Below, piece after piece: positions 39,018 through 54,870 of a stretch of DNA of 64,000 bases. The DNA comes from an uncultured Fibrobacter sp. (lineage in GTDB: Bacteria > Fibrobacterota > Fibrobacteria > Fibrobacterales > Fibrobacteraceae), in the NCBI GenBank assembly GCA_934699585.1, contig CAKUWY010000006.1, positions 44,797 through 108,796 of the forward strand, given 5' to 3'. Every line of letters begins with the position of its first letter. Within the stretch, counting starts at the first letter, position 1. The position numbers and the translations under genes were made by a program. The notes beneath the pieces were generated by a model. It worked only from the letters and a program-made list of their open reading frames with translations, was not told the DNA's origin and did not search any database.

Positions 39018-42000
39018 ATGAGCAATTTGAAGAACGATTTGTGGGTCGGCGTGGACGTGGGTTCTACCACCGTGAAAATCGCAGTTGTCGATCCAGAGAC
39101 CAGCAAGCTTTTGCATTATACGTACCAGCGCCACAACGCCATGCAGGCGCAAAAGGTTTACGAGGTGCTGCGGGAGGCTCACGGGCTGTTCCCCGAAAAG
39201 AATTTCAGGGTTGCCTTCTGCGGTAGCGGCGGTCAGCCCTTCGCCGAAGCCACCCATGCCTTCTTTGTGCAAGAAGTGGTGGCCAACGCCCTTGCGGTGC
39301 GTGCAACTTACCCGGAATCTAGGGTCGCCATCGAACTGGGCGGCCAGGATGCAAAGGTGGTGTTCTTCGAAAAAGACAAGACTACCGGCAAGCTCATTGC
39401 CTCTGACATGCGTATGAACGGCGTGTGCGCCGGCGGTACCGGTGCCTTTATCGACCAGGTGGCCGAACTTTTGCGCATCAAGACTGAAGCCTTCGAAGGC
39501 TTCGCCAAGCGGGGCCAGAAGGTTTACGAGATTTCGGGCCGTTGCGGCGTGTTCGCCAAAACCGACATCCAGCCCATGCTGAACAACGGCGTTGCCAAGG
39601 AAGACATCGCCCTTTCCAGTTTCCACGCCATCGCAAAGCAAACCATCGGCGGTCTTGCCCAGGGTATGGAAATCAAGCCGCCCGTGATTTTCGAAGGTGG
39701 CCCGCTCACCTTTAACCCGACACTCGTTCGCGCCTTCAAGGAACGCCTAGGCATTAGCGACGAGCAGGCCATTGTGCCGGAACACTCCGAAGTGCTGGTG
39801 GCCATGGGTGCCGCCCTTTCCCTCGGGTCCATGTTCGCCGATCAGGAATGCCAGTACCGCCGGGAAGGCTCCCTGGATTCCCTCATCCACTTCAACGAAA
39901 CCCGCCAGGCCGAAAACAAGGCCAAGGCCGCCGCCGACCTGTTCTTCAAGAACGACGCCGAATACAAGCTGTTCCTGGAAGAACACAAGATGGCGGGCAA
40001 CAACTACCCCCAGCCCGCCTCGGGCTCTACCCTGAACGTGTACCTGGGTATTGACGCGGGTTCTACCACCACGAAGTTCGTCTTGATGGACGAGCAGGAA
40101 AACGTGGTGGACGGCTTTTACGCCAGCAACAACGGCGAACCCCTGCAGGTGCTGAAAAACGCCCTGAACGAACTCAGCGACCGCTACGAGGAATACGGCT
40201 GCACCCTGAACATTTTGGGTGTAGGAACAACTGGCTACGGCGAGCAGCTTTTTGCGAAGGCCGTACACGCCGACTACCATACGGTGGAGACGGTGGCCCA
40301 CGCCAACGCCGCCCAGAAGATCTGCCCCGACGTAAGCTTCATCTTGGACATCGGCGGCCAGGACATGAAGGCCATCTCCGTGCAAGACGGCGTAGTCACG
40401 GGTATCATTCTGAACGAGGCCTGCTCTTCGGGTTGCGGCTCCTTTATCGAGACCTACGCCCGGAGCCTGGGAATTCCTATGGAAAAGATTGCGGAACTGG
40501 CCTTCAACGCCAAGAGTCCGTCCCAGTTGGGCAGCCGCTGCACCGTGTTCATGAACAGTTCCATCATCACGGAACAGCGCGACGGCAAGCAGCCCGAAGA
40601 CATTATCGCAGGTATCTGCCGCTCCATTATCAATAACGTTTTCACGAAGGTGATTCGTATCCGCAACCTGAACACCCTGGGCAAGAAGGTCGTGGTACAG
40701 GGCGGTACCTTCAAGAACAACGCCGTTCTCCGCGCCTTCGAGCAGTACACGGGCCTAAAGCCCATCCGTCCCGAACGTCCGGGCGAAATGGGCGCTATCG
40801 GTATCGCGCTTTTGACCAAGAAATTCATGGAAGAAAAGCGCAAGACCGAACCGGAACTCAAGAGCCGCTTTATCGGGCTTGACGCCATGAAGACCTTCAG
40901 TTGGCACAACCAGCCGGGTCAGCTCTGCCAGTACTGCACCAACCATTGCTCACGTACCATCGTGACCTTCAGCGACGGCCAAAGCTTCGTGACGGGTAAC
41001 CGCTGCGAACGCGGCGAAGTCACCGCCGACCCCAACGACCCGAAGACCAAGGCGCTCATCGCCGAAATCAACAAGAAGATGCAGTCCGTGCCCGACATGA
41101 TTAAGCGCACGAACCAGCTGTTGGTCAAGGACTACGCTCCGGCAAAGCTTGTGGAGAACAACGGCAAGACCATCGGTATTCCCCGCGTGCTGGAATTCTG
41201 GGCGAGCCTCCCCTTCTGGAAGGCCTTCTTTACAAGCCTTGGCTACACCGTCGTAGTGAGCCGCCAGAGCGACTACAAGATGTTCGAAGCGGGCCTCCAC
41301 AGCGTGCCCTCTGACACGGTTTGCTTCCCGGCAAAGCTGGTCCACGGCCATGTGCTCAGTCTCATCGAAAAGAAGGTGGACCGCATCTTCTTCCCCATGA
41401 TGGTGGCGGTTCCCAGCGACCACACCAAGTTCACGGCAACGTCCGTTTGCCCCGTAGTGCAGGCCTACCCCAACGTCTGCAAGAACACCGACGAGCCCGA
41501 AAAGAATTACGGCGTTCCCATGGACCAGCCCATATTCCACTGGTTCAACGCCAAACTCCGTCGCAGCCAGACTATTGACTGGTTCCACGAAAACTGGAAG
41601 CTGGACAAGAAGCTTTTGGACAAGGCTGTAACCGAAGGCGAGAAGGCGCTCAACAGTTACCGCACCACGCTTTTGGAAGAAGGCCAGAAGGTGCTGGACG
41701 ACGTCCGGGCGAAAAATTCCTTTGCCGTGGTGATTGCAGGCCGCCCCTACCATGCGGACACGCTCATCAACCACAACATCGCAAGCCACTTTACCGCCAT
41801 GGGCATTCCGGTGCTCACCACCGAATCGCTCCCCGGCGTTTACGACCAGGATGTGCCCAGCCACACCCGTATCGAAATCAAGAACACCTTCCACTTGCGC
41901 ATGATTGGTGCCACCATGATTGCGGCGAAGGATCCAAACATCGAACTTGCGCAAATCGTAAGTTTCGGTTGCGGACACGACTCCATCTTGACCGACGAAA

Positions 42001-43451
42001 TGATGCGCATGCTGCACCTTGATTCCAACAAGGAAATGCTCATGCTCAAGCTGGACGAGGGTGATGCCCGGGGCCCCGTGGGAATCCGCGTCAAGAGCTT
42101 TATCGAAACGGTAAAGGCCCGCCGCGCGGCAAACCTGCCCGACAAGCCCGAAAGCCACGAGCCCCTGTTCCACACGCCCTTCTTGCCCGAAGACAAGAAG
42201 CGTCGCCGCATTCTGACACCGAACCTCTCTCCCGCCTTTACCGTGCTGGCTAGCGAATACATGAAGCGGGAAGGTTACATCGCCGAATACCTGCCGGTGG
42301 CCGACCGCAAGGCCATCGAACTCGGCAAGAAGTTCGTGCACAACGACATCTGCTTCCCCTGCCAGGTGAACATCGGCGAAGCCCTCCGCTGGCTGGTGGA
42401 ACACCCCGAAGTTCCGCAGAACCAGGTTTCCATGTGCCTTGCCAAGAACTGCGAAAACTGCCGCGCCGTGCAGTACGCCGTACTCGCCCGTAAGGCCCTT
42501 GACGAAGCCGGTTTCAAGGACGTGACCATCATTACCACCGGCGTGGACTACAAGGGCATGCACCCCGGTTTCCAGCTGGGCCTCGACTTCAGACTCCACA
42601 TGCTGTGGGGCCTTGTGACCATGGACGCCATCGAGACCATGTACCGTGCCGTGCGCCCCTACGAAGTGAACGCAGGCGACACCCAGAAGGTCTACGACGA
42701 ATGGATGCCCAAGGTGATTGCCGTCGCAGGCCACCTGACCACAGCCCAGCTAGTGCGGCCCTCCAAGCTCATCGAAGTCTTTGAACAGTGCATCGAGGCC
42801 TTCAACGGAATCGAAATCACCGAAGAACGCAAGAAGGGTATCCGCAAGCCACGCGTAGCCGTGCTTGGCGAAATCCTGATGAACTACCACCCCAGCGCCA
42901 ACGGCTTTGTGGAAAACTACCTGATGAACAACGGCATGGAAGTCTACCTGCCGGGCATAACGGACTTTTTCCGCGTGGACGAGGTGGTCCGCGCCGAAAA
43001 GATCAAGCGCGGATTCTCCGCGAACCCCATCATGGACCGCGTGGAAGGCGGCGTGACGGCAAGGGTCTATACCCACGCCGTGGAGACCGCCCGCAAGTCC
43101 ATGCACAAGTTCAAGCTGTACGAGCACCACGCCGACTGCGTGGAACTGAAGGACTACGTTTCCGACATCATCGACCCCACCTACAACACGGGCGAGGGCT
43201 GGATGATTCCGGGAGAAATCCTGTACAACGCACAGCACGGAGTGAACAGCTACATCATCTTGCAGCCCTTCGCCTGCCTTGCAAACCACATCTCCGGCCG
43301 TGGCCTTACCAAGGCCGTGAAGGAACGCTGCCCCCACGTGCAGATTCTTAGTCTTGACTACGACCCGGATACCAGTTTTGCAAACATCGAAAACCGCCTG
43401 CAGATGCTGATTATCAACGCCCGCGAGCTGGAAAAAGCAAACCAGAAATGA
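39018..43451 (+). CDS. BCR/HAD-family fusion protein: two BcrAD/BadFG-type activase ATPase domains plus dehydratase-like/DUF2229-like C-terminal half; architecture of the anaerobic plasmalogen synthase PlsR-PlsA
   Basis: Two actin-fold ATPase starts (..VGVDVGSTTVKIAVVD.. and ..YLGIDAGSTTTKFVLMD..), each followed by ..GGQD.K.. and ..ACSSGCGSF../..CAGGTGAF.. cluster-ligand regions. The C-terminal ~800 aa carry Cys motifs (..CQYCTNHCSRT.., ..CFPAKL.., ..CFPCQ..). Start ATG 39018. Confidence 0.7.
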   Translation: MSNLKNDLWVGVDVGSTTVKIAVVDPETSKLLHYTYQRHNAMQAQKVYEVLREAHGLFPEKNFRVAFCGSGGQPFAEATHAFFVQEVVANALAVRATYPESRVAIELGGQDAKVVFFEKDKTTGKLIASDMRMNGVCAGGTGAFIDQVAELLRIKTEAFEGFAKRGQKVYEISGRCGVFAKTDIQPMLNNGVAKEDIALSSFHAIAKQTIGGLAQGMEIKPPVIFEGGPLTFNPTLVRAFKERLGISDEQAIVPEHSEVLVAMGAALSLGSMFADQECQYRREGSLDSLIHFNETRQAENKAKAAADLFFKNDAEYKLFLEEHKMAGNNYPQPASGSTLNVYLGIDAGSTTTKFVLMDEQENVVDGFYASNNGEPLQVLKNALNELSDRYEEYGCTLNILGVGTTGYGEQLFAKAVHADYHTVETVAHANAAQKICPDVSFILDIGGQDMKAISVQDGVVTGIILNEACSSGCGSFIETYARSLGIPMEKIAELAFNAKSPSQLGSRCTVFMNSSIITEQRDGKQPEDIIAGICRSIINNVFTKVIRIRNLNTLGKKVVVQGGTFKNNAVLRAFEQYTGLKPIRPERPGEMGAIGIALLTKKFMEEKRKTEPELKSRFIGLDAMKTFSWHNQPGQLCQYCTNHCSRTIVTFSDGQSFVTGNRCERGEVTADPNDPKTKALIAEINKKMQSVPDMIKRTNQLLVKDYAPAKLVENNGKTIGIPRVLEFWASLPFWKAFFTSLGYTVVVSRQSDYKMFEAGLHSVPSDTVCFPAKLVHGHVLSLIEKKVDRIFFPMMVAVPSDHTKFTATSVCPVVQAYPNVCKNTDEPEKNYGVPMDQPIFHWFNAKLRRSQTIDWFHENWKLDKKLLDKAVTEGEKALNSYRTTLLEEGQKVLDDVRAKNSFAVVIAGRPYHADTLINHNIASHFTAMGIPVLTTESLPGVYDQDVPSHTRIEIKNTFHLRMIGATMIAAKDPNIELAQIVSFGCGHDSILTDEMMRMLHLDSNKEMLMLKLDEGDARGPVGIRVKSFIETVKARRAANLPDKPESHEPLFHTPFLPEDKKRRRILTPNLSPAFTVLASEYMKREGYIAEYLPVADRKAIELGKKFVHNDICFPCQVNIGEALRWLVEHPEVPQNQVSMCLAKNCENCRAVQYAVLARKALDEAGFKDVTIITTGVDYKGMHPGFQLGLDFRLHMLWGLVTMDAIETMYRAVRPYEVNAGDTQKVYDEWMPKVIAVAGHLTTAQLVRPSKLIEVFEQCIEAFNGIEITEERKKGIRKPRVAVLGEILMNYHPSANGFVENYLMNNGMEVYLPGITDFFRVDEVVRAEKIKRGFSANPIMDRVEGGVTARVYTHAVETARKSMHKFKLYEHHADCVELKDYVSDIIDPTYNTGEGWMIPGEILYNAQHGVNSYIILQPFACLANHISGRGLTKAVKERCPHVQILSLDYDPDTSFANIENRLQMLIINARELEKANQK

Positions 43452-44554
43452 TAATGCGGAGAGCCGTTCTGTTCTACCTGTGCATAGCGATTTTCGCTTT
43501 TGCACAGTCTAGTTCCGCTCCTCCCTCCAGCAAGGAAATCAACATGGACCTGGAACATGAAGACGTGTTCCAGCGTTATTCCGTAGTGCCGGTCCTGGGG
43601 TATACAGAAGAAACCGAATTCCAGTACGGTTTCATGGCCCTATTCTTCCTGAAGCCCGACCAGAAAGGAGAAAAGGTGCCCGAAATCGGGTTCACCGCTT
43701 ACGGTTCCACCAGAGACCAGCTTCACCTGGCCCTGGAGCCCTATTTCTATTTTCTCCACGACCGGGTCACCCTTTGGAGCCTGCTCAAGTACCAGGACTG
43801 GGTCGCCAGCTATTTCGGGAGAGGCAACGATCCGGACATAGACAAATTCGTCAACTACGACCGAAAAAAATTACAGCTGGGCACAAGGGTCGAATCCAGG
43901 ATAGGACTGCCCCAGAGCCTCAAGTACGGCGTCGAAATCCACGTAGAGCATTCGGACATAGACTTTGAGGAAAGCGAGACCATCAAGACCCCGGATACCC
44001 ATTCGGGCTGGCGAAACGGCATCGGTTACCTGTTTGGGCTGGACACCCGGGACAACACCAACTGGACCCGCCACGGTTACCTTTTGCAGTGGCAACAGAT
44101 GTTCTACAACAACCATTTCGGAGACTACACCTTCGACACGGAATCCCTGGACTTGCGAGGCTATACCGAAACACCCCTGCAAACCTCCCTGGCTCTCGGT
44201 TTTCTCTGGATGCGCTCCGGCGGAGACGTTCCCTTCGACATGCTGGCCGGCCCAGACGGAATATGCCGATTCCGCGGAGTGGAAAGTCTCTACTTCGGCG
44301 ACAACCAGGCGGTCATTCTTCAGGCAGAAATCCGGCGCTTCTTGTTCTGGCGTTTCGGGAGCCACGTCTTTTTCGAAGGGGGCAAGTCCGGCGGCTATTT
44401 CAGCGACCTGGTTCGCAACGAATGGCACAAGTCCGTCGGGATAGGCGCTCTGCTCGGCCTGAACCTGAAAGAAAACCTGTTTGCCCGCGCGGATTTTTCG
44501 TGGGTGGATTTCGACCACCTGGGTCTTTCGTTCTATGTCCGACAGGCTTTTTAA
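43448..44554 (+). CDS. Omp85/D15 (bacterial surface antigen) beta-barrel protein without POTRA domains
   Basis: Signal peptide MIMRRAVLFYLCIAIFAFAQS. ..LDLRGYT.., ..RFRGVESLYFGDNQ.. and terminal ..LSFYVRQAF fit an Omp85 barrel. The ATGA overlaps the stop of the 1477-aa gene. Confidence 0.65.
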   Translation: MIMRRAVLFYLCIAIFAFAQSSSAPPSSKEINMDLEHEDVFQRYSVVPVLGYTEETEFQYGFMALFFLKPDQKGEKVPEIGFTAYGSTRDQLHLALEPYFYFLHDRVTLWSLLKYQDWVASYFGRGNDPDIDKFVNYDRKKLQLGTRVESRIGLPQSLKYGVEIHVEHSDIDFEESETIKTPDTHSGWRNGIGYLFGLDTRDNTNWTRHGYLLQWQQMFYNNHFGDYTFDTESLDLRGYTETPLQTSLALGFLWMRSGGDVPFDMLAGPDGICRFRGVESLYFGDNQAVILQAEIRRFLFWRFGSHVFFEGGKSGGYFSDLVRNEWHKSVGIGALLGLNLKENLFARADFSWVDFDHLGLSFYVRQAF

Positions 44555-44580
44555 CCAACCTCTAACTCAACAACTTCCCT

Positions 44581-44985
44581 ATGACCCCTTGTAACCACAC
44601 CCACACCACCCGAATCGAAGTCCGCTATGCCGAAACCGACCAGATGGGGGTGGTCCACCATGCCGTTTATCCCGTCTGGTTCGAACTGGCCCGTACCGAC
44701 TATTTCCGTTCCCTTGGCGCCAGTTACCTGGAAATAGAAAAGGAGGGGTTTGTAAGCCCGGTTCTCAAGCTGGAAGTCCAATACAAGCGCCCCACCCACT
44801 ATGGGGAATTTGTGGATATCGAAACCACCCTGACCCGCAAGGGGGCTCTCCACTTCGTATTCGACTACAAGGTTTTTGTCGATGGAGCGCTCTGCACCAC
44901 AGGCTCATCCGTGCACTGCTTTCTAAAAAACGGGCAACCCACGCGAGAACTGCCCGACCAAGTCAGAAAAATATTCCCGGATTAA
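44581..44985 (+). CDS. Acyl-CoA/acyl-ACP thioesterase, 4HBT (YbgC/FadM) family
   Basis: ..IEVRYAETDQMGVVHHAVYPVWFELARTDYF.. is the hot-dog thioesterase signature. Confidence 0.8.
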   Translation: MTPCNHTHTTRIEVRYAETDQMGVVHHAVYPVWFELARTDYFRSLGASYLEIEKEGFVSPVLKLEVQYKRPTHYGEFVDIETTLTRKGALHFVFDYKVFVDGALCTTGSSVHCFLKNGQPTRELPDQVRKIFPD

Positions 44986-45112
44986 ACACTTTTACGCTCT
45001 TTTCGTCCTGCATATCGGGCGGTATATCGGAAAAAAACACGCTTTTTAGCGAGAAATTCCGTTATTTTTCTATTTTTATCTTGTTATTTTCTAAAATTTT
45101 CGAGGTAAAAAA

Positions 45113-45358
45113 ATGGATCAAGAAGAAGTCAAAAGCAAATTGAAGGCGTTTTTCATGTCGGATCTGGGCGTAGATGGCGACGTTCTCCAGTACGACACCG
45201 AACTTTTCGGCGAAGAAATCGGCCTGGATTCCGTGGATTCCCTGGAAATCATCTCCTTCGTGGACAGCAACTTCAACGTGTCCATGACCGGCGTCGGCAA
45301 GGAACATTTCCAGTCCATCAATACGATTGCCGCCTATATAGAAGCCCACAAGGCATAA
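45113..45358 (+). CDS. Acyl carrier protein (specialised, non-AcpP type)
   Basis: 81 aa. Phosphopantetheine attachment motif ..IGLDSVDSLEII... Confidence 0.8.
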   Translation: MDQEEVKSKLKAFFMSDLGVDGDVLQYDTELFGEEIGLDSVDSLEIISFVDSNFNVSMTGVGKEHFQSINTIAAYIEAHKA

Positions 45359-45373
45359 CCTAATCTACATCTT

Positions 45374-47770
45374 ATGACTCCTGACGAACGCCGCTGTGTA
45401 GTTACTGGCCTGGGCGTTATTTGCGCCGTCGGTAACAATGTTGAAGAAACCTGGAAAAGCGCCCTGAATTCCGTTTCGGGGATCCACAAGACCATCTCGG
45501 TGGATACCACCAAATGTTATGCGGACTTGGCCGCCGAAGTCAAGTGCGACACCCTAGATGAAATCGACGCCCCCGAAGAAAAAGACCGGGTCTCCAAACT
45601 TTGTATCAAGGCCACAAAAGAAGCCCTGGCCGATGCAGGTCTTGCAAACTTTAACGACGACCAGCGCGTAAGCGTGGTCATCGGCAGTTGCGTAGGCGGA
45701 GTCCTCTCTATTGAGCGTTACCATCAACACGGTCGCGATGTTTCTGAAATTGCCAAGATGCCCATTGCGGCAATCGCCTCCCAGGTAGCCGAAATCTGCG
45801 GGGCAGGCGGAATCGTCACCAATGTAGCAAACGCCTGTGCAGCAGGCACAATTTCTATAGCCGTCGCCTGTGACCTGATTCGTGCCGGCAAGGCAGACGT
45901 GGTTATCGCAGGCGGAGCCGATTCCTTTGCGGCGGTTCCCTATTCCGGATTCCTTTCGCTCCACGCCCTGGACGAAAACGGCTGCTCCCCCTTCAACCGC
46001 TGCAACGGAATCACCCTCGGCGAAGGTGCGGGTATCGTCATCGTGGAATCCTACGAACATGCCCAGAAGCGTTCCGCAAAGCAGTACTGCGAAATACTGG
46101 GTTCAGGCGTCACCAGCGACGCAAACCACATCACCGCCCCCAGAGAAGATGGCGTGTGCCTGATGGAAGCCATCAGCCGCGCCGTCAAGAATTCCGGCAT
46201 CGACAAGTCCGATATCGGTTACGTGAACGCCCACGGCACGGGTACCGGCAAGAACGACAATGCCGAAATTACCGCCTTCAAGAATTTCTTCGGCGAAGAC
46301 AACGTCAATATCTCGGTAAGTTCCACAAAGGTTCTCACTGGGCACTGCCTGGGAGCGGCCGGCGCCATCGAAGCCGTATTCAGCATCAAAGCACTAACCA
46401 CGGATACGGTCCTCCCAACCTTCCCCTACACCGAAGAACAGTCCGCCGCCCTCAAGGAAAAGGTGGGAGCGCTGGACTTTGTGCAGAACACAGCCCGCCA
46501 CAAGGAACTCAAGTGTGTCTTGAGCAACAACGTGGCCTTCGGCGGCACGAATGCGGCCATTGTTTTCTCGAAAATCCCCGGCGAAGTTGCCGCCCAGTCT
46601 GCGGCAGGCAAGAAGATTGCCGTAACCGGTCTTGGAATCGTGTCCCCGCTAGGGAACAGCAAGGCGGCCTACCTGGAAGCAGTAAAGGCAGACAAGAAGC
46701 CCGAATCCCCATCGGTACATTCCACAATCGCCCTCGAAGACTACAAGGAGCTTGGGGTCAAGATGGCCTTCTACCGCAAGCTGGACAACCTAGGTCAACT
46801 CCAGACGGTATCCGGCATGCGCGCCCTCCAAGACGCCAGCTTCACGGTAACCGAAGACAATGCCAAGGACATCGGCATCATCGTGGGTACCAGCGAAGGC
46901 GGCCTCGGTGCCACCTACGATTTCGAGGAACTGATTGCACGGGAAGGCAACTCCCAGGGTTCGGCCTTCAAGTTCCCCCACACCGTTTACAATGCGGCTG
47001 GCGGCTACCTTTCCATTTGTTCCGGCATCAAGGGCTACGGCGTCACCATTACCACAGGCCCACTTTCAGGACTCGACAGTATCGGCTACTCCATGAACGT
47101 GATTCACGACGGCCAGGAAAAGGCAATGATGGCCACCGGTACAGACGAAAACCTGCCGATTATTACGGAATTTGCCCAGAAACTTGGCGTGGCGGCAAAT
47201 AATGTGGTCGCACCCTATGCCGAAAACGACGGCTTTGTGGTGGGCGATGGTTCCGTGTCTATCATGCTCGAAGAAGATTCTTATGCCAAGTCCCGGGGAG
47301 CCAAGGTTTACTGCTATGCGCTGGGCTTCGGCCACGGCCGCAAGAACGTGAAATTTGGAAAACTCGCCGATTCCGAAAACGCCCTCGACAAGGCCATTGC
47401 AGATGCCCTGGCCGATGCGGGCATCACCGTAAGCGACATCGATGCGGTTTGCGGGTTCGCCAACGGTTGCAAGCGGATTGACGATATCGAAAAGGGTTCC
47501 CTCAAGCGCGTGTTTGGCGAAAAACTTTCCACGACGCCGCTCTTCGAAGTCAAGGAACGTACCGGCGAAGGCCGTGCGGGGTCTGCCGCCCTGGCCGCCG
47601 CCGAAGCGGCCCTCCTGCTGAGTGGTGAACTTGCTGGCGAAAAAGCCTACTTTGTGGCGGCCGACGGTTCCGTGACATCCAAGAAGGTCGATGCGACTGG
47701 CCTCAAGAAAATTTTGGTGATTTCGTTTGCGGCAGGCGGGTCTTACAGCGCAGTCATTTTCGGTAAATAG
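45374..47770 (+). CDS. Fused beta-ketoacyl synthase and KS-like (chain-length-factor-like) didomain protein
   Basis: Domain 1: ..NACAAGTISIAVA.. (Cys), ..NAHGTGTGKND.., ..LTGHCLGAAGAIE.., ..AFGGTNAAIVFSK. Domain 2 restarts with ..KIAVTGLGIVSPLGN.. but has ..GTSEGGLGATY.. where the Cys motif should be, and lacks the HGTGT motif. Ends ..AAGGSYSAVIFGK. Confidence 0.8.
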   Translation: MTPDERRCVVTGLGVICAVGNNVEETWKSALNSVSGIHKTISVDTTKCYADLAAEVKCDTLDEIDAPEEKDRVSKLCIKATKEALADAGLANFNDDQRVSVVIGSCVGGVLSIERYHQHGRDVSEIAKMPIAAIASQVAEICGAGGIVTNVANACAAGTISIAVACDLIRAGKADVVIAGGADSFAAVPYSGFLSLHALDENGCSPFNRCNGITLGEGAGIVIVESYEHAQKRSAKQYCEILGSGVTSDANHITAPREDGVCLMEAISRAVKNSGIDKSDIGYVNAHGTGTGKNDNAEITAFKNFFGEDNVNISVSSTKVLTGHCLGAAGAIEAVFSIKALTTDTVLPTFPYTEEQSAALKEKVGALDFVQNTARHKELKCVLSNNVAFGGTNAAIVFSKIPGEVAAQSAAGKKIAVTGLGIVSPLGNSKAAYLEAVKADKKPESPSVHSTIALEDYKELGVKMAFYRKLDNLGQLQTVSGMRALQDASFTVTEDNAKDIGIIVGTSEGGLGATYDFEELIAREGNSQGSAFKFPHTVYNAAGGYLSICSGIKGYGVTITTGPLSGLDSIGYSMNVIHDGQEKAMMATGTDENLPIITEFAQKLGVAANNVVAPYAENDGFVVGDGSVSIMLEEDSYAKSRGAKVYCYALGFGHGRKNVKFGKLADSENALDKAIADALADAGITVSDIDAVCGFANGCKRIDDIEKGSLKRVFGEKLSTTPLFEVKERTGEGRAGSAALAAAEAALLLSGELAGEKAYFVAADGSVTSKKVDATGLKKILVISFAAGGSYSAVIFGK

Positions 47771-47793
47771 TTTCAGGTAGAAGGAGCGAAAAC

Positions 47794-48525
47794 ATGAAAG
47801 TTGCTTTGGTAACAGGTGCTTCAAAGGGTATCGGCAAGGCCTGCGCCTTGCGCCTTGCCCGCGACGGCTACACCGTCGTAGTGAACTACTCCAGTTCCGA
47901 CGAGGCAGCAAACGCCACGCTCGACCAGATCAAGGCCGAAGGTGGTGACGGCATGGTTTACAAGGCGAACGTGGCCGACCTCTCCCAGGTGAAGGTGATG
48001 GTTCGCGAGGTGTTCAAGGCTTACGGGCGCATTGACGTGCTGGTGAACAACGCAGGCATCGTTCGCGACGAATACCTGATGATGATGAACCCGGAAACCT
48101 TGGACAAATGTTTCGACCTGAACGTGAAGGGTTACTTCTACTGTGCCCAGCAAGTCGCTGTCAAAATGTATAAGCAGAAGTCCGGCGTGATTATCAACAT
48201 GAGTTCCGTGTCCTCGAAGTTCGCGTTGGCAGGCCAGGCGGTCTACAGCGCCACGAAGGGTGCGGTGAACTCGCTGACCCAGACCCTCGCGAAGGAGCTG
48301 GGCGGTTTCGGTATCCGCGTGAATGCCGTGGCTCCTGGATTTATCGCTACCGAGATGATCGAGGCCATTCCCGAAGAAACCCGCAAGGGCTACCTCGAAA
48401 AGATTCCCTTAAAACGTTTCGGTTCTGCCGATGAAGTGGCCAACATCGTGTCGGCCCTGGCCTCTGACCAGTTCGCCTATGTGACCGGCCAGGTGTTCGT
48501 GCTGGACGGAGGACTTTCCCTATGA
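47794..48525 (+). CDS. 3-oxoacyl-ACP reductase (SDR, FabG-like)
   Basis: ..VALVTGASKGIGKA.., ..NNAG.., YSATKGA. Confidence 0.85.
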   Translation: MKVALVTGASKGIGKACALRLARDGYTVVVNYSSSDEAANATLDQIKAEGGDGMVYKANVADLSQVKVMVREVFKAYGRIDVLVNNAGIVRDEYLMMMNPETLDKCFDLNVKGYFYCAQQVAVKMYKQKSGVIINMSSVSSKFALAGQAVYSATKGAVNSLTQTLAKELGGFGIRVNAVAPGFIATEMIEAIPEETRKGYLEKIPLKRFGSADEVANIVSALASDQFAYVTGQVFVLDGGLSL

Positions 48526-48968
48526 TGAACATTTACGAAATCAGCGAAAAGATTGCACAGCGTCCGCCGTTCCAGATGATCGAGAAAGTGACGGAACTTA
48601 CGCCGAACGAATCGGCCGTGGGCATCAAGAACGTAAGCGTGAACGAACCGTACTTTATGGGGCATTTCCCCGGCACTCCGATTATGCCGGGCGTGCTCAT
48701 TGTGGAAAGTTGTGCCCAGCTTTGCTCCCTAGTGATAGAAAAACCCGCCGAAGACTTGGAAAAGAACCTATACGTCCTTCTGAAGATTGACGGGTTCAAG
48801 TTCGTGAAGCCGGTAATCCCCGGCGACCAGCTCGAAATTTCCGTGAAGAAGACCAAGGAAGGGGGCGTGCTGGTAGGCTTTGACTGCATCGTGAAGGTGA
48901 ACGGAAACGTCCACGCCAAGGGTGCCCTCACCTTTACGAGCATTCCAAAGGAATCCTTAGGGAAATAG
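48522..48968 (+). CDS. 3-hydroxyacyl-ACP dehydratase (FabZ-like hot-dog)
   Basis: ..EPYFMGHFPGTPIMPGVLIVESCAQL... Overlaps the upstream KR by 4 nt. Confidence 0.8.
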   Translation: MMNIYEISEKIAQRPPFQMIEKVTELTPNESAVGIKNVSVNEPYFMGHFPGTPIMPGVLIVESCAQLCSLVIEKPAEDLEKNLYVLLKIDGFKFVKPVIPGDQLEISVKKTKEGGVLVGFDCIVKVNGNVHAKGALTFTSIPKESLGK

Positions 48969-49007
48969 AAATCCGTGGTCAGTGGTTAGTGGTTAGTGGC
49001 TAGGAAC
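48966..49007 (+). repeat. 7-nt stop-codon array inside the operon: TAGAAAT CCGTGGT CAGTGGT TAGTGGT TAGTGGC TAGGAAC
   Basis: Exact period 7. The first TAG is the stop codon of the FabZ-like gene. Confidence 0.75.
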
Positions 49008-49037
49008 TCAAGGAAAAACCCGCTGGTAGAATGCTTC

Positions 49038-49793
49038 ATGCATCTCGTTGTCATCGTGGTGATATACACGGTGCGGATCTTTATGTTCGCCTGGTTCCGA
49101 CCGAAGGTTGAGTTCACAGGTGAAACCGCGAAGTCGGCCCGTCTCACTCACCCCTGCGTGATTATCGCCAACCATACCAGCATGCTGGACCCCATCATGA
49201 TGCTTGCCGTATTTTTTTCGCACAAGAGCATTGTGGTGGCCAAGGACCAGATTGAAGACCCCCATTTTCGTTGGGCGCTGACCCGCGCAAAGTGCGTGAT
49301 TCCCTGCGACCGATTCAATATGGACACCGAATGGGCGCTACTTGCCAGGCGGGAACTGGAAAAAGGGAACAACGTCATCATTTTCCCCGAAGGCAAGTGC
49401 CGCTACGACGGGCTGTTGAACGAGTTCAAGACGGGCTTTGCCTTCCTTGCGCGCAGTACCGGAGCGCCGGTTCTTTCCGTGGGGCTTGACGGGATCTACA
49501 AATTTGGACACCGTACCCGCATCGTGGTAGGAGATGCCGAAAAAATCGAACGGGTGAAGGGAATCACCTCTTCTAAGCACTTGGCAGAACGAAGCGAACA
49601 CTTTAGGCAGAAGGTCTGGCAGCTCAAGCAGAAGGCCCTTGACATAGCCAATCCGAAGGCTTTGCCCGTTGCCGCAGAAACACCTGTGGAATGTCACCCT
49701 GGAGCGTCAGCGATAGGGTCCACGAAAGCAGTGGATTCTATCGGTCCTACGGACCTCCAGAATGACAATGCTCAAAATAGGGGGAATGCATGA
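49038..49793 (+). CDS. Lysophospholipid acyltransferase family protein
   Basis: ..ANHTSMLDP.. (HX4D) and ..FPEGKCR... Start ATG 49038 is preferred, because the track start (GTG 48996) lies inside the heptad array. The C-terminal ~35 aa are encoded by REP-like elements. Confidence 0.7.
   Translation: MHLVVIVVIYTVRIFMFAWFRPKVEFTGETAKSARLTHPCVIIANHTSMLDPIMMLAVFFSHKSIVVAKDQIEDPHFRWALTRAKCVIPCDRFNMDTEWALLARRELEKGNNVIIFPEGKCRYDGLLNEFKTGFAFLARSTGAPVLSVGLDGIYKFGHRTRIVVGDAEKIERVKGITSSKHLAERSEHFRQKVWQLKQKALDIANPKALPVAAETPVECHPGASAIGSTKAVDSIGPTDLQNDNAQNRGNA
49693..49766. repeat. REP-like doublet, long-stem subfamily (GTCAyyCTGGAG..GATAGrrTCCAC), forming the 3' end of the acyltransferase ORF
   Basis: GTCACCCTGGAGCGTCAGCGATAGGGTCCAC (49693-49723) and, inverted, GTGGATTCTATCGGTCCTACGGACCTCCAGAATGAC (49731-49766). 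Confidence 0.7.
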
Positions 49794-50635
49794 AAACGGG
49801 GCTGGTTCTAGAGGGCGGTTCTCGCCAGACCATGTTCAGCGCAGGCGTGCTGGACACCTTCATGGACGAAGACATCCCCTTCGACTACATTGCAGGCGTT
49901 TCTGCCGGGGCACACGCGGCCATCAATTACATTACCCGCCAGCAAGGGCGTCTCCGCTTTATCGTCCTGCCGACACGTCTCCAAAAGGGCAAGAAATGGG
50001 CAAGCAAGTACATCGGCATCCAGAAGGAATTTCATGCCCTAAACTACTTGTCTGCCGACGGTGAAATGCCCCTGGACTTTGAAGCCTACGCAAGTTCCAG
50101 AGTCGAATGCGAAATCGGCCTCACCTGCTGTGAGACGGGTCGCGCCGAATTCAAGGGCGAAAAGCAAGACAAGAAACGGCTCCTGGACCTGATCAGCGCC
50201 AGTTGCGCCCTGCCCATGCTTTTCCCCATGGCAAAGCTAGACGACAAGCACTACGCCGACGGCTGCATTACCGAACCCATCCCCTACGAACGTGCCTTCG
50301 AAAAAGGGTGCGACAAGGTAGTGGCCATTTCTACCCACTATCCGGGCGAAGCGGTGACGGACTTTCGCAAGTACCGGGCCATCTTGAACCCGCTGTACAA
50401 GAACAAGTATCCCAACCTGTTTCGGGCACTAATGGTACGGCTCAAACGGTACGAAAAAAAATTTAGCCAGATGGAATCCCTGGAAAAAGAAGGCAAACTT
50501 TTCTTGATTCGCCCCCTTATTGACCTTTGCGACCAGTTCGATACCGACATGGACAAGATGAACGAATCCTATGAGCACGGCGTCGAAATGGCAAAGCAGC
50601 GTATGGAAGAACTAAAGGCATTCCTAGAAATCTAA
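49790..50635 (+). CDS. Patatin-like phospholipase
   Basis: ..GLVLEGGSRQ.. (oxyanion region), ..GVSAGA.. (GxSxG), ..ADGC.. (catalytic Asp). The ATGA overlaps the upstream gene. Confidence 0.8.
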   Translation: MKTGLVLEGGSRQTMFSAGVLDTFMDEDIPFDYIAGVSAGAHAAINYITRQQGRLRFIVLPTRLQKGKKWASKYIGIQKEFHALNYLSADGEMPLDFEAYASSRVECEIGLTCCETGRAEFKGEKQDKKRLLDLISASCALPMLFPMAKLDDKHYADGCITEPIPYERAFEKGCDKVVAISTHYPGEAVTDFRKYRAILNPLYKNKYPNLFRALMVRLKRYEKKFSQMESLEKEGKLFLIRPLIDLCDQFDTDMDKMNESYEHGVEMAKQRMEELKAFLEI

Positions 50636-50658
50636 CTTAATGGAATTAGGACCGTTGA

Positions 50659-51414
50659 ATGGCAGAAACAAAGAAAATCCTCGTAATGGTAGCGAGCCCC
50701 AAAAACGAACGGAGCGGCACACTGATTCCAACCAAGGCCTTTGTCCAGGGCCTTGAAGAAAACGGAAATTTTGAAACGGAATATATCTTCATCGACAAGA
50801 TGAACATCAAGCCCTGCCGTGGTTGTCTCAGTTGCTGGGGCAGGCCCGATGGCAGTTGCTTTATCAAGGACGACGACGTTCCCGCCATCCGGGAAAAACT
50901 AACCAACGCAGACATTGTCATCTGGAGTTTCCCGCTGTTCCTGTTCAGCATTCCTGGGCAGATGAAAGTGCTGATGGACCGTATCGTGGGAATGGTCCAC
51001 CCCTACATGGGCCAAAAACTTCAAGAAGGCGCAAACGCATCCAATTCCAACCTTCATGGGCTTCAGTTCCAAAAAGAAGGCCAGAAAATCATCTTGCTGT
51101 CCAGCTGCGCCTGGTGCGACATCGACGTTGTTTACGAGCCCATCGTAAAGCAGTTCGACATTATCCTGGGACACGAAGGCTACCAGCTTGTGGCCTGCCC
51201 CCAGATGCGGGCCCTGCACCACCGGGGCGGGGAACGCAGGCTAAACATCTTGCGCAAGCGGTACTGGCAAGGCGGCGCAGAACTTGCAAAGACAGGCAAG
51301 CTCTCAAAAGAGACGATAGACCTCATGCAAAAGACTATCTTTAGCGACGAAGCCTACGAGAAACTGGTGGTAGAATTCGTAACCCACATGTTTGACCGGG
51401 ATGACAATTTCTAG
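50659..51414 (+). CDS. Flavodoxin-fold NAD(P)H-dependent FMN reductase / iron-sulfur-flavoprotein-like protein
   Basis: ..KILVMVASPKNERSGT.. and ..KPCRGCLSCW.. are typical of this family. Confidence 0.6.
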   Translation: MAETKKILVMVASPKNERSGTLIPTKAFVQGLEENGNFETEYIFIDKMNIKPCRGCLSCWGRPDGSCFIKDDDVPAIREKLTNADIVIWSFPLFLFSIPGQMKVLMDRIVGMVHPYMGQKLQEGANASNSNLHGLQFQKEGQKIILLSSCAWCDIDVVYEPIVKQFDIILGHEGYQLVACPQMRALHHRGGERRLNILRKRYWQGGAELAKTGKLSKETIDLMQKTIFSDEAYEKLVVEFVTHMFDRDDNF

Positions 51415-51440
51415 TTGTTCCATTAGGCAAGAATTTCCAA

Positions 51441-52508
51441 ATGACAGCGATTGCAGAAACCATAAGACTCCCCGCCCGGTTGACCGCCGCCAACAGCAGG
51501 GATCTTCTGCATAGATGCAGGGGTTGTCTCCGCAAGGGCGATCTCTGCCTTGACGGGACAATGCTTGCCCAGATGGACTATAGCGGCGACGCCTTTTTTT
51601 CCCTGCTGGCCGACCTGTCCGAAAAGACGGGGCACAAGCTGACCCTCGCCCATTTCTGTGACGACATAAAATCCCACCTAAAAAATTTAAAAAGGCAAAA
51701 GGTCCCTGCAGGAGAAAAAAGCAAACGCCATTTTCTTGAAATCCTTGGAGAAAAGGGGATAAGGGCAGCCAAGGGCACAGCCGAAGTTTTCGTGTTGCTG
51801 AACATGTCCATCTACTGGAGCCTGCTGGGGCCGTTCGACAAGGGAAAAATCAAGTTTCGCGGGACGGCCAAACAAATTTTCGCACTGGGGAGCGAAGCCA
51901 TGGGCATCTGTTTTTTGATGGTGGCCCTGATTTGCTTTACCATGGCCCTGCAAAGTTCCTTTATGCTTAAGGCCGTAGGCGGCGGCTCCTACCTGGCCTC
52001 CGGTCTCGGATTCCTGATTTTTGCAGAAATCGGACCGCTTCTGACCACCATCATTCTGGCGGGTCGCTCCGGCAGTTCCATTGCGGCAGAAATCGCCAAC
52101 ATGTCCGTATGCGAAGAAGTAAAGGCCATCAAGACCATGGCCATTCCGCCTGTTCAATACCTGGTGGTGCCCCGCTTTATCGCCATGAGCATTTGTACGC
52201 CAATCCTTTCATTCTGCGCCTCCATCTGCGGATGTTTCGCCGGATTCCTGATAGCCTTCTTTTTCTTTGACATCACCTTTACCAACTATTTCAACTCTAT
52301 CCGCGAAGGCATCGAGCCAATCCTTTTCTTAAAGAGTTCCATCAAGGCACTTGTATTTGGATGGTTGGTCACCCTTATATCTTGCAACAAGGGGTTGAAC
52401 GCCACCGGCGGTGCCGAAGCGGTTGGCCTCGCCACAACATCCAGCGTGGTAACTTCCATTTCCGCAATCATCGTTGCCGACACCTGCTTCGGCTTCATAT
52501 TCTACTGA
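51441..52508 (+). CDS. MlaE-family ABC permease with N-terminal STAS-like domain
   Basis: The N-terminal ~90 aa (..RLPARLTAANSRDLL..LDGTMLAQMDYSGDAFFSLL..) are STAS-like. The rest is a polytopic MlaE-type permease (..EIGPLLTTIILAGRSGSSIAAEIANM..). Confidence 0.7.
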   Translation: MTAIAETIRLPARLTAANSRDLLHRCRGCLRKGDLCLDGTMLAQMDYSGDAFFSLLADLSEKTGHKLTLAHFCDDIKSHLKNLKRQKVPAGEKSKRHFLEILGEKGIRAAKGTAEVFVLLNMSIYWSLLGPFDKGKIKFRGTAKQIFALGSEAMGICFLMVALICFTMALQSSFMLKAVGGGSYLASGLGFLIFAEIGPLLTTIILAGRSGSSIAAEIANMSVCEEVKAIKTMAIPPVQYLVVPRFIAMSICTPILSFCASICGCFAGFLIAFFFFDITFTNYFNSIREGIEPILFLKSSIKALVFGWLVTLISCNKGLNATGGAEAVGLATTSSVVTSISAIIVADTCFGFIFY

Positions 52509-52515
52509 GGACAAA

Positions 52516-53313
52516 ATGGTAGTTCCATCGAAAAGCGCAATTCTCCAGGTAGATCACCTGAAAGCAGGTTACGGTGGCAGGACCGTTTTGAACGACATAT
52601 CCTTCGACGTAAAAAAGGGTGAAATCCGCATGATCCTGGGAAGTTCCGGCTGCGGGAAATCTACGCTGCTGAACAACATCCTAAAACTGATAAAATCCCA
52701 AAGCGGGACCATCACCTATTTCGGGAAAACCTTCGGTGCCAAAGAAGGGCTGGACAGCGAGACCCGCATGCGTACCGGCGTCCTTTTCCAAAACGGGGCG
52801 CTACTTTCGGACCTGACCGTAGCAGAAAACGCCATGCTCCCCCTGATTCGCAGCATGCCCTACATGCCCAAAAGCCAGATGGAAGCCATCGTTGCCGACA
52901 GGCTGGAAAAAGTCCACCTGCTGGACGCCTTCCACAAGTATCCTTCGGAATTGTCTGGGGGAATGAAAAAAAGGGCCGCCCTCGCCCGGGCCATCGCCCT
53001 CAAGCCAGAACTGCTGTTCTGCGACGAACCGTCCACTGGACTGGACCCGATTACCGCCCGCTCTTTGGACGAACTCCTGCTGGAACTTAGGGACACCCTG
53101 GGAGTTTCCATGGTTATTGTGTCTCACGAGCTGGAAAGTATCAAGATTATATGCGACAGGTTCGTATATTTGCAGGAAGGATACGTACTCATGGACGGAA
53201 CACTGCAACAAGGACTAGATAGCGAAAACCCGACCCTCTGGAATTTTTTCCGCAGGGAATGCCCCCCCGAAAAAGACAACAATGAATATTACCATTTCGA
53301 TTTTCTAGACTAA
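52516..53313 (+). CDS. ABC transporter ATP-binding protein (MlaF-like)
   Basis: Walker A GSSGCGKST, signature LSGGMKKR, Walker B LLFCDEP. GAGG lies upstream of ATG 52516. Confidence 0.85.
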   Translation: MVVPSKSAILQVDHLKAGYGGRTVLNDISFDVKKGEIRMILGSSGCGKSTLLNNILKLIKSQSGTITYFGKTFGAKEGLDSETRMRTGVLFQNGALLSDLTVAENAMLPLIRSMPYMPKSQMEAIVADRLEKVHLLDAFHKYPSELSGGMKKRAALARAIALKPELLFCDEPSTGLDPITARSLDELLLELRDTLGVSMVIVSHELESIKIICDRFVYLQEGYVLMDGTLQQGLDSENPTLWNFFRRECPPEKDNNEYYHFDFLD

Positions 53314-53323
53314 AGAGTGAAAG

Positions 53324-54250
53324 ATGGAAACCACACGCTCCGAAAGAATAAAGATTGGCGCTTTCATGCTCTTTTGCGGAATACTTATCCTGGTATTCCT
53401 GGGCTACGTCCTGTCCCGCTACCTGAACAAGGAATACGACTATTACTACACCATATTCAACGATTCAGTCATTGGCCTGTATAACGAAGCGCAGGTCAAA
53501 CTGAACGGCATTGATGTGGGAAACGTGGTAAGGATTCAAATCGACTCCACGGACTTGAACCAGGTCGTGGTGATTTTCCGAGTAAACAGGGGGACTCCAA
53601 TCAAGCAGGGAACCAGGGCAAGTATGACCCATGGGATTTCCCTTACTGGCGAAAAGCAAATAGTTCTCTCTGGCGGACGTTTTGACGAACCCAATGTGGA
53701 AAAGAATGGTTATGTTCCCGCAGCAGAAAATTCATTTGACAAGTTTGCAAACCAGGCAGGCGACATCGTTGGAAATGTAGATGCACTGGTTGGAAACCTG
53801 AACCGTATTTTTTCCAGGGAAAACGTAAACAACATCAGCAGCGCCCTGAAAAATTTGGAAAGTGCGACCAAGAATTTGGACCAGTTGACACAGAACATAT
53901 CCTCCCCTATCGAGAATTTCTCTGCTGCAGCCAATTCCATGAAAACCATTCTGGGAGAAATCGAGGAAGCCAAAATCGCAGCCAAGGCGGGAACTGACCT
54001 AGACCTGATCAAGGAGAAACTGGAAGCCATCGATACCAGGACCATGAACGACAACCTGCAGCAGACGCTGGAATCCGTAAAGCAGTTGACTGGGCGCCTG
54101 GACCAGACCGTCTATAAGAATCAAGACCAGGTAGAAAATGTCATTACCGAACTGAACGCGGTGCTTTCCAACATGGAAGAATTCTCCCAAAAGATCAAAA
54201 ACAATCCCTCGGCACTTATCCATTCAGAAGCCAAGGAGAGACGCAAATGA
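53324..54250 (+). CDS. MlaD/MCE-domain protein with long C-terminal helical region
   Basis: N-terminal TM helix, then ..VIGLYNEAQVKLNGIDVGNVVRIQID.. (MCE fold), then a coiled-coil-like tail. Confidence 0.7.
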   Translation: METTRSERIKIGAFMLFCGILILVFLGYVLSRYLNKEYDYYYTIFNDSVIGLYNEAQVKLNGIDVGNVVRIQIDSTDLNQVVVIFRVNRGTPIKQGTRASMTHGISLTGEKQIVLSGGRFDEPNVEKNGYVPAAENSFDKFANQAGDIVGNVDALVGNLNRIFSRENVNNISSALKNLESATKNLDQLTQNISSPIENFSAAANSMKTILGEIEEAKIAAKAGTDLDLIKEKLEAIDTRTMNDNLQQTLESVKQLTGRLDQTVYKNQDQVENVITELNAVLSNMEEFSQKIKNNPSALIHSEAKERRK

Positions 54251-54870
54251 TTCGATACACGTCATTCTGGGCTGCGACCCGGAATCTAGCGGCGCTTTTA
54301 TTGCTTACCCTTACCCTGACAGGTTGCTTTGGCGGCGGGACCTCTGAGCCTACACGTTACTATACCCTTGCCGTAGAAAACATTTCTGCACCCAAGGCGA
54401 GCGAGACACTTGCAAGCAAGAGCGTAACCGTAAAGAAATTTACCATCGACCCCGCCTACCAGCGCTCAAATATCGTCTATCGGGAATCTGCCTACGACTT
54501 CATGTTCTACGACCTGGACCTCTGGGCAAGCCGGCCGGAACACATGATTACACGGGTCGTCACGGAATATGTTGAAAAGAGCAAATTGTTCAAGTCTGTT
54601 ATTGCGGCAGGCGGCATCATGCCGGATTACGAACTCTCTGGCCACATCGGGGCAATCGAGGAGGTTGACGAAGGCAGTTCCCAGTCAGCACACCTGACTA
54701 TTGGCCTCACATTCAAGAGCGTCCAGTCGAGCGCTATCTTGTGGGAGGGCAAATGCGACAAAAGTAGGTCCACCACTAGCAGGGAACCGAGAGTCACGGC
54801 GGAAGCCCTGTCCAAACTACTGGGCGAATGCTTGGAAGAAAGCCTGAAGGGGATTTCTTCTATAGAATAA
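54247..54870 (+). CDS. ABC-transport auxiliary lipoprotein (PqiC/YmbA-like)
   Basis: Lipobox ..LTLTLTGCFGG. ..YYTL.. and the size fit the DUF330/PqiC family. Overlaps mlaD by 4 nt. Confidence 0.55.
   Translation: MIRYTSFWAATRNLAALLLLTLTLTGCFGGGTSEPTRYYTLAVENISAPKASETLASKSVTVKKFTIDPAYQRSNIVYRESAYDFMFYDLDLWASRPEHMITRVVTEYVEKSKLFKSVIAAGGIMPDYELSGHIGAIEEVDEGSSQSAHLTIGLTFKSVQSSAILWEGKCDKSRSTTSREPRVTAEALSKLLGECLEESLKGISSIE

Follow-up and report, generated by a model that had tools for sequence, protein, structure and literature searches.

A 64,000-nucleotide stretch of the genome of an uncultured Fibrobacter sp. (assembly GCA_934699585.1, contig CAKUWY010000006.1; hereafter the window) carries on its plus strand an open reading frame (ORF) with an ATG start that encodes a protein of 1477 amino acids, followed by an ORF encoding 368 amino acids. 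The larger product is a candidate anaerobic plasmalogen synthase of the PlsA-PlsR type and the smaller an Omp85-type outer-membrane barrel devoid of POTRA domains; the stop codon of the first gene overlaps the predicted start codon of the second. A first-pass annotation of the window had read this arrangement as translational coupling between a cytoplasmic lipid-modifying enzyme and an outer-membrane barrel. Here we analyse both proteins, their junction and the genes that accompany each of them in related genomes (Table 1).

Table 1. Features of the plsA-barrel-alr region of the window
Feature	Position	Strand	Basis
plsA-plsR fusion gene, 1477 aa, candidate anaerobic plasmalogen synthase	39018..43451	+	ORF; Pfam 2x PF01869 + PF09989; Listeria collinearity; 15 invariant Cys
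Two BcrAD_BadFG activase ATPase domains (Act1, ~residues 1-300; Act2, 343-598)	39018..40811	+	PF01869, TIGR00241, PDB matches
Cys-rich linker CxxCxxxC...C (C637, C640, C644, C663)	40926..41006	+	Four Cys invariant in five-sequence alignment
First reduction domain, Red1 (DUF2229 / PF09989)	41169..41828	+	Pfam match, residues 718-937
Second reduction domain, Red2, equivalent of the separate PlsR gene	42129..43448	+	Alignment to Fusobacterium gene 2
ATGA stop/start overlap	43448-43451	+	TGA of the 1477-aa ORF shares letters with ATG of the 368-aa ORF; at left breakpoint of the 11.4-kb block
Block present in some relatives and absent in others, from the barrel gene to the auxiliary lipoprotein gene, flanked by plsA and alr	43443..54908 (11.4 kb; right end approximate)	+	blastn, tblastn synteny
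noNterm (POTRA-less) Omp85-type 16-stranded outer-membrane barrel, 368 aa, first block gene	43448..44554	+	AlphaFold2 model, Foldseek, motifs
4HBT / YbgC-FadM-type thioesterase	44581..44985	+	Pfam 4HBT_2 and 4HBT; TIGR00051 77 bits
Acyl carrier protein (ACP), 81 aa	45113..45358	+	NCBIfam ACP models E ~1e-8, below their cutoffs; DSxDS motif
Ketosynthase-chain length factor (KS-CLF) fusion, 798 aa	45374..47770	+	Two KS domains
FabG-type ketoreductase (KR)	47794..48525	+	adh_short_C2 218 bits; TIGR01830 270 bits; FlxB 235 bits
FabZ/ApeI-like dehydratase (DH)	48522..48968	+	NF000582 137.5 bits, above cutoff; Pfam FabA; weak ApeI-like match
LPLAT/PlsC-type acyltransferase	48996..49793	+	Pfam Acyltransferase 77.7 bits
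Patatin-like lipase with DUF6363	49790..50635	+	Pfam; without signal peptide
Flavodoxin-like / FMN-reductase-like protein	50659..51414	+	Pfam FMN_red and Flavodoxin_2
Mla-like lipid ABC transporter: STAS-MlaE, ATPase, MlaD, auxiliary lipoprotein	51441..54870	+	MlaE 205 bits, ABC_tran, MlaD, ABC_trans_aux
alr (alanine racemase), directly 3' of plsA in block-less relatives	54880..56148	+	Pfam Ala_racemase_N and _C; synteny

The larger protein (hereafter PlsA) is 95–100% identical to proteins of F. succinogenes-like metagenome-assembled genomes (MAGs). Pfam assigns to it two stretches of PF01869 (250.6 bits, the best at residues 343–598), which TIGR00241 also matches twice (281 bits), and a PF09989 domain (231.1 bits) aligned over profile positions 1–217 of 218. 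Searching the PDB with the sequence matched the activators HgdC and HadI, and also MbdQ/P, through generic activase domains only, and returned no PlsA structure. Orthologues were collected by tblastn against PLSDB, in which some chromosomes are filed as plasmids: full-length collinear matches came from Haliovirga abyssi (53% identity), Collinsella aerofaciens (46%) and Listeria monocytogenes (35%), and Fusobacterium gave a split form of 975 plus 404 amino acids. The L. monocytogenes orthologue WP_014600632 stood in for the validated enzymes (Q8XL48/Q8XL47 and Q835P9) in the full-length comparison, where BLASTP aligned residues 8–1470 with 837 bits.

The reduction domains were compared separately. 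Red1 (residues 716–1030) is 34–35% identical to its Listeria and Fusobacterium counterparts. The C-terminal ~440 residues are homologous to a separate Fusobacterium gene annotated as '2-hydroxyacyl-CoA dehydratase' and to the C-terminus of the Listeria orthologue; as Red2 (residues ~1040–1470), this region has 27.9% identity to Fusobacterium gene 2, 29.1% to Listeria and 51% to Haliovirga. In an alignment of five sequences from three phyla (the window, F. intestinalis, Haliovirga, Listeria and Fusobacterium) the boundary between the two Fusobacterium genes falls at residue ~1037, and 15 Cys are the same in all five. Four of them lie in the linker between the activase and reduction domains (C637, C640, C644 and C663) and are a likely set of putative Fe–S ligands. 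The first-pass annotation had described a 'PlsR-PlsA-type fusion' of two BcrAD/BadFG activase domains with a DUF2229-like half. The domains and the fusion itself are borne out, by the Pfam matches and by four modules that align end to end with Listeria, but the order is the reverse, with PlsA first and PlsR following. Similarity to PlsA/PlsR beyond the activase domains, which it had put forward as a test, amounts to 28–35% identity in both reduction domains; of the profiles it had named, BcrAD_BadFG (twice) and DUF2229 were found, whereas HGD-D had no Pfam match in the protein.

Plasmalogen synthase is encoded by two genes in Clostridium perfringens and by single genes of 4.2–4.9 kb in Enterococcus faecalis, Lactococcus cremoris and Bifidobacterium longum; single-gene plsA has the domain order Act1-Act2-Red1-Red2, and E. 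coli expressing these single genes produces plasmalogens (PMC12838417). In the published definition, two PF01869 domains and PF09989 make up the plsA part, and plsR is the second reduction domain (bioRxiv 10.64898/2026.06.23.733905). On these grounds the window protein is a candidate Fibrobacter orthologue of the BCR/HAD-type, oxygen-sensitive plasmalogen synthase. By analogy with the family, its two activase ATPase domains would drive low-potential electrons via Fe–S clusters into the two reduction/dehydration domains, and these would turn the sn-1 acyl ester of an already complete phospholipid into a vinyl ether.

PlsA homologues of the Ger type give saturated alkyl ethers and not vinyl ethers (PMC13159169), and the window protein could accordingly be read as a glycerol ester reductase making saturated 1-O-alkyl ethers. 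Ger enzymes are modified PlsA homologues of overlapping architecture, that of Thermotoga maritima spanning both the plsA and the plsR parts (PMC13159169), and sequence alone does not separate the two, with no residue-level discriminator at hand. This ambiguity weighs against the plasmalogen synthase assignment, as does the use of the Listeria orthologue in place of the validated sequences. PlsA is favoured over Ger because of the organism's lipids: Bacteroides (Fibrobacter) succinogenes was reported in 1963 to be rich in plasmalogens, and its aldehyde:phosphorus ratio was said to resemble that of Ruminococcus flavefaciens, 0.56–0.80 (PMC9702350), a record in keeping with the plasmalogen content that the first-pass annotation had given for this species. 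In addition, the window protein retains the second reduction domain that is absent from one Ger architecture (bioRxiv 10.64898/2026.06.23.733905), and it is collinear with the orthologue from Listeria, which has been reported as an anaerobic plasmalogen maker (PMC9702350). A Ger-type activity is in our judgement improbable, and the published lipid chemistry of the organism supports a vinyl ether (1-alk-1'-enyl lipid) as the candidate product. The gene most likely to lie behind the plasmalogens reported in 1963 can now be pointed out.

The 368-amino-acid protein has a Sec-type signal peptide (MIMRRAVLFYLCIAIFAFAQS) and a C-terminal Phe. Its Pfam Omp85 (PF01103) score is borderline (24.7 bits; cutoff 24), and more distant members of its family reach 36–86 bits. 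An AlphaFold2 model built from 39 homologues (predicted local distance difference test score 86.3, predicted template-modelling score 0.80) consists of a signal-peptide helix, a disordered stretch and 16 strands; as ~25 low-confidence residues separate the signal peptide from the first strand, which already begins at residue 44, a POTRA domain would not fit, and Pfam returned no match to one. Foldseek comparison of this model with the PDB placed BamA, TamA or Sam50 in all of the top 50 positions, the best being Fusobacterium nucleatum BamA (9ccg, E 2e-11, template-modelling score 0.67). That protein was also the single, weak match of a PDB profile search with the barrel alignment (E 0.33).

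The loop at residues 260–286 of the barrel contains an invariant GPDG..RFRGV, in which R274, F275, R276, G277 and V278 are fixed, and an FxExG motif follows, with F308 and E310 invariant and G311 nearly so. HMMER pairs these two elements with LRGY and FADAG of F. nucleatum BamA, and we take the two as equivalents of the L6-loop motif pair of the Omp85 superfamily. When 1.84 billion representative proteins were searched with a profile, 3299 relatives were retrieved at E ≤ 1e-3, nearly all of 340–420 amino acids. The small protein is a member of the noNterm Omp85 subfamily, already described but uncharacterised (PMC4104836, PMC11358297); a signal peptide followed by a POTRA-less Omp85 barrel, as seen at first pass, is what the model and the fold matches support.

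To place the pair in context, PlsA was scanned against one genome per GTDB species, which yielded 75 Fibrobacteraceae loci at 74–100% identity; the 63 with at least 1.3 kb of downstream sequence were used for synteny counts, and all window proteins were compared with the loci by tblastn. The barrel is next after plsA in six of the 63 (L017, L024, L059, L069, L081 and L089) and alr in four (L026, L029, L070 and L075). The other 53 have another gene or feature after plsA; ABC-F-like ATPases and terminator-like hairpins are frequent there, the hairpins lying directly 3' of plsA in many species. Where the barrel is not next, it was found nowhere in the 10-kb flank (0/57), and in MAG RGIG9772 plsA and the barrel are on different contigs. 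The reciprocal count gave a similar picture: a metagenome scan with the barrel profile returned 80 loci, and among the 59 with at least 1.5 kb of upstream sequence plsA preceded the barrel once (L092).

Two side observations concern the plsA loci themselves. The ORF 3' of plsA in many Fibrobacter species (L019–L023, L027–L032 and others) starts MLNVSNVSLQYGS and has ~23% identity to the window's ABC ATPase; this ABC-F-like gene is not near a barrel. The locus L055 (JAJFTS010000164.1) comes from a MAG that bears the label 'Deltaproteobacteria bacterium'; its PlsA has 74% identity to that of the window, inside the Fibrobacteraceae range, which suggests mis-binning or lateral transfer.

In the four relatives of the alr type, whose PlsA is 95–97% identical to the window's, plsA runs straight into alr, and in two of them (L029 and L070) the upstream genes are the same as in the window (acyltransferase, ruvA, mqnE and RhuM fragment). 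By blastn, homology between the window and these four ends at 43441/43442 and resumes at 54903–54925, so that the 11.4 kb in between constitute a presence/absence block, with the barrel as its first gene and the auxiliary lipoprotein of an Mla-like transporter as its last.

The ATGA overlap described at first pass is present in the sequence and coincides with the left breakpoint of this block. A second ATG at 43454 (MRRAVLF...), two codons 3', is an equally plausible barrel start and would leave a 2-nt gap, so that the very existence of the overlap hinges on the start call. Among block carriers the overlap was seen only in the window, L017, L069 and L009/L010. Three others (L024, L081 and L089) have a TAA plsA stop and share the same non-coding-looking stretch of ~115 nt instead; in L024, with a PlsA 99% identical to the window's, the barrel ORF begins 39 nt past the plsA stop and its signal peptide differs. 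In L059 the plsA stop is again TAA and barrel homology sets in 61 nt beyond the end of the PlsA alignment. The C-terminus of PlsA reads ...KANQK* in the window and ...KANSGEAHD* or ...KANMGGEHGKE..SEA* in block-less relatives; the protein varies only in the few residues past ELEKAN, and these change with whatever sits downstream. The overlap looks like a by-product of a block junction that falls in the last two or three plsA codons.

These data bear directly on the proposal that translational coupling unites plsA and the barrel in a functional pair, in which the barrel would place or sense plasmalogens in the outer membrane. The overlap is real and is also seen in the closest relatives (L017, L069 and L009/L010), both products concern the cell envelope, and no terminator was detected between the genes. 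By comparison, the adjacency itself is confined to 6 of the 63 plsA loci from the one-genome-per-species scan and, counted from the barrel, to 1 of 59 metagenome loci; four relatives with a nearly identical PlsA lack the barrel at the site, and the overlap is lost where PlsA is 99% identical. PlsA is unusually well conserved across Fibrobacteraceae (74–100% identity) by comparison with the barrel (45–97%), which argues against co-evolution of the two. The first-pass annotation had itself named the absence of the Omp85 neighbour from related genomes as evidence against coupling, and had suggested a survey of diderm plsA carriers: the barrel is missing beside plsA in 57 of 63 Fibrobacteraceae loci, and in the diderm Fusobacteriota Fusobacterium animalis and Haliovirga abyssi plsA has no barrel downstream. 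A functional pair is on this evidence very improbable. The coupling as first proposed would have meant a new route from a cytoplasmic lipid enzyme to an outer-membrane barrel, and that link does not hold.

We consider it likely that the window instead contains two independent units that happen to abut, namely a stand-alone plsA-plsR and a relocatable, barrel-led lipid block, joined by chance. In this arrangement plsA would act throughout Fibrobacteraceae as a single gene with changing neighbours, and the block would sit between plsA and alr in one F. succinogenes-like sub-lineage, its left breakpoint within the final plsA codons.

Several observations weigh against so clean a separation. No terminator-like site was found between plsA and the barrel, in a scan that yielded no more sites than shuffled sequence; promoter and terminator counts alike were at or below the shuffled expectation and are uninformative, and the interval from 36.0 to 56.5 kb gave no Rfam match. 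In this strain plsA and the barrel gene may be co-transcribed, and read-through transcription or translational coupling may occur, though not as a conserved design. The indel may be an insertion or a deletion, as neither flanking repeats nor a tRNA or integrase orient it. With regard to the block as a barrel-led unit, about two thirds of barrel homologues are lone genes without the lipid cluster, and in a separate look-up the barrel of L013 (65% identity) was found to keep the thioesterase only and to adjoin a divergent mla operon. A mobile-element origin of the block was considered and found no support, there being no direct repeats at its boundaries, no nearby tRNA and no integrase.

The block encodes a set of type II polyketide synthase/fatty acid synthase (PKS/FAS)-like enzymes between the barrel and the transporter genes. 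Within the KS-CLF fusion the N-terminal half has the residues C155, H287 and H324, and the C-terminal half is without both His motifs and matches PRK06519. The orthologue of the block ACP in L011 has a weak PP-binding match. The patatin-like lipase begins MKTGLVLEGGSRQ, with no hydrophobic leader, and the auxiliary lipoprotein of the Mla-like set has the lipobox LTLTGC. The MlaE permease (51441–52508) has an STAS_2 domain at its N-terminus (a weak match of 24 bits), a fusion uncommon among Mla-type permeases.

The barrel and these enzymes relocate together. Among metagenome barrels at least 61% identical to that of the window and with at least 2.5 kb of downstream sequence, all 16 are followed by ACP-KS.CLF-KR-DH; at 53% identity or less this order is not downstream in any of 42. 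What lies upstream of this barrel-led cluster varies, with at least six unrelated contexts represented by plsA, ribF, uvrB (on the opposite strand), a large repeat protein, GSCFA and MatE. The more divergent Fibrobacter barrels stand alone next to nuoA, pgm or ABC-F genes, and homologues in Fibromonadales and elsewhere have other, unrelated neighbours. A pairwise identity matrix of barrels is star-like and does not settle whether cluster-type and lone-type barrels are orthologues or paralogues.

Lone-type barrels are preceded by a divergent ABC-F gene, confirmed by Pfam in L152. This neighbour was considered as a lipid transporter and rejected, being an ABC-F protein; it and the ABC-F-like ORF after plsA are apparently different loci. 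Two distant barrels, in L175 (7498–10104; Fibromonadales) and L177 (9001–11336; another Fibrobacterales MAG), adjoin a MotA/ExbB-family gene, and that of L177 comes directly after fabG-acpP-rnc.

Whether the barrel has a role within the cluster can be argued either way. It may be a general-purpose noNterm Omp85, for example an auxiliary foldase of outer-membrane proteins or a stress-related protein, whose place at the head of a lipid cluster is incidental. The family is very large and uniform in size, as the 3299 representatives indicate; lone genes make up most of the Fibrobacter homologues and unrelated neighbours surround the distant members; all characterised Omp85 proteins handle proteins and not lipids, and the neighbourhoods of noNterm members are reported as variable (PMC11358297). 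Since most homologues are lone and L013 keeps only the thioesterase, barrel function need not depend on the cluster. Set against this is the unbroken association of the 16 barrels at or above 61% identity, among those with enough downstream sequence, with the ACP-KS.CLF cluster despite the diversity of upstream contexts, a joint relocation that is hard to explain unless barrel and cluster have a functional or regulatory tie. A general-purpose role is a serious possibility, although we would not count on it.

Judging solely by conserved gene order, the barrel would most likely serve the outer-membrane end of a lipid made by the type II PKS/FAS-like enzymes of the block. We put forward a cluster-dedicated outer-membrane function only tentatively, as something that is on balance unlikely. 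Its more specific form, in which the cluster-type barrel would be a dedicated outer-membrane part of an aryl-polyene-like lipid module that receives, inserts or flips a polyene or acyl lipid delivered by the Mla-like or MMPL transporters, is likewise unlikely. If true, it would give noNterm Omp85 proteins their first functional context, with a lipid and not a protein as client; in the lineage of the window the transcript could then also carry plsA, and ether-lipid remodelling would be coupled to the lipid module by an accident of insertion.

The main value of these findings is negative, in that stop and start codons which overlap by 4 nt at a rearrangement junction do not count as evidence for functional pairing of the two genes. 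The existence of natural block-plus and block-minus relatives does, however, offer a cheap route to the role of the block and possibly to that of this orphan class of barrels.

Some neighbouring features of the window were also recorded. A 26-nt inverted repeat (38209–38234 and 38876–38901; 92% complementary) brackets a RhuM-family fragment of 100 amino acids (38317–38619), and homology to all other plsA loci starts at 38903, just past its right arm; the interval between mqnE and plsA differs in length among close relatives. The mqnE product (36202–37323) is a radical SAM protein that scores as aminofutalosine synthase MqnE (449 bits, above cutoff), and the futalosine route to menaquinone is therefore implied. 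A tRNA-Lys(ttt) gene (27492–27564, minus strand) adjoins a PorQ/PorV-like outer-membrane protein (27626–28639), and two ORFs at 24049–25874 (minus strand) have N-terminal methylation (pilin-like) motifs.

By comparison with known systems, the large protein shares Act1, Act2, Red1 (DUF2229) and Red2 with PlsA/PlsR (C. perfringens CPE1194/1195 and the single-gene forms of E. faecalis, L. cremoris and B. longum). Its 1477 amino acids lie inside the 1415–1639 span of the validated single-gene forms, the Cys pattern is kept, its source is anaerobic and its host is known for plasmalogens. It differs in that Fibrobacterota, which are diderm, represent a new phylum for this enzyme, in an identity of only 35% to the Listeria orthologue, and in its short, variable tail after ELEKAN. 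The Ger enzymes of T. maritima and Desulfatibacillum alkenivorans resemble it as homologous BCR/HAD-type enzymes that act under anoxia on the sn-1 ester of membrane lipids; they differ in making saturated alkyl ethers, where Fibrobacter chemistry points to vinyl ethers, and in a domain architecture reported as different.

The co-occurrence of a patatin-like lipase and an Omp85-family barrel in one block recalls PlpD-type (type Vd) patatin-Omp85 secretion. However, each has its own gene here, at a distance of five ORFs, and a two-partner or type Vd mechanism was rejected, as the patatin is without a signal peptide and the barrel without a POTRA domain to receive a passenger.

The likeness to aryl polyene (APE)/flexirubin clusters is closer, as the block and the genes at 29.6–35.5 kb together hold most of the published APE core set (PMC8253772, bioRxiv 10.1101/2020.12.19.423268). 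The latter region (29619–35533) encodes on the minus strand a KS (NF006587/PRK09116, 625 bits, above cutoff), a FabG2-like KR and an 802-amino-acid MMPL/HAE3-like transporter, and on the plus strand an unassigned 239-amino-acid ORF and an LPLAT acyltransferase. The candidate equivalents of APE genes in the window are the PRK09116-type KS, the KS-CLF, the ACP, the FabZ/ApeI-like DH, the FabG/FabG2-type KRs, the 4HBT thioesterase, the LPLATs and the MMPL transporter; at the level of domains, putative counterparts of each member of the core set (apeO/R KS, apeC CLF, ACP, DH, KR and apeM transporter) are present, in two separated groups. Unlike APE clusters, the window has these groups parted by ruvA, mqnE and plsA, its KS and CLF are fused, and a patatin lipase, a flavodoxin-like protein, an Mla-like transporter and the Omp85 barrel are added. 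Among the ORFs scanned between 21.3 and 61.5 kb none matched an AMP-binding (ApeH-type) or LolA-like (ApeL/N) family, ORFs of 239 and 247 amino acids being unassigned, and no methyltransferase or glycosyltransferase was seen in the block and the 29.6–35.5 kb gene set. We do not file the block as an APE cluster because it is without the aryl-activating enzyme and LolA-like genes.

Like the noNterm Omp85 proteins of Heinz and Lithgow (2014) and the Leptospira proteins LIC12252/12254/12258 (Bettin et al., 2024), the small protein has a signal peptide followed directly by a 16-stranded barrel, no POTRA or other periplasmic domain, a conserved RG motif in the L6 loop, and variable neighbourhoods; it differs in having no match to DUF5982. 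The enzyme extends a known family to a new phylum, the barrel falls into a known but uncharacterised subfamily and the coupling proposed for them is no system. What distinguishes this barrel is its place in a Fibrobacter sub-clade as the first gene of a type II PKS/FAS-like lipid cluster, a setting not found in PMC4104836 and PMC11358297; a noNterm Omp85 at the head of such an aryl-polyene-like lipid module is the sole lead to come from this locus, and a mildly novel one.

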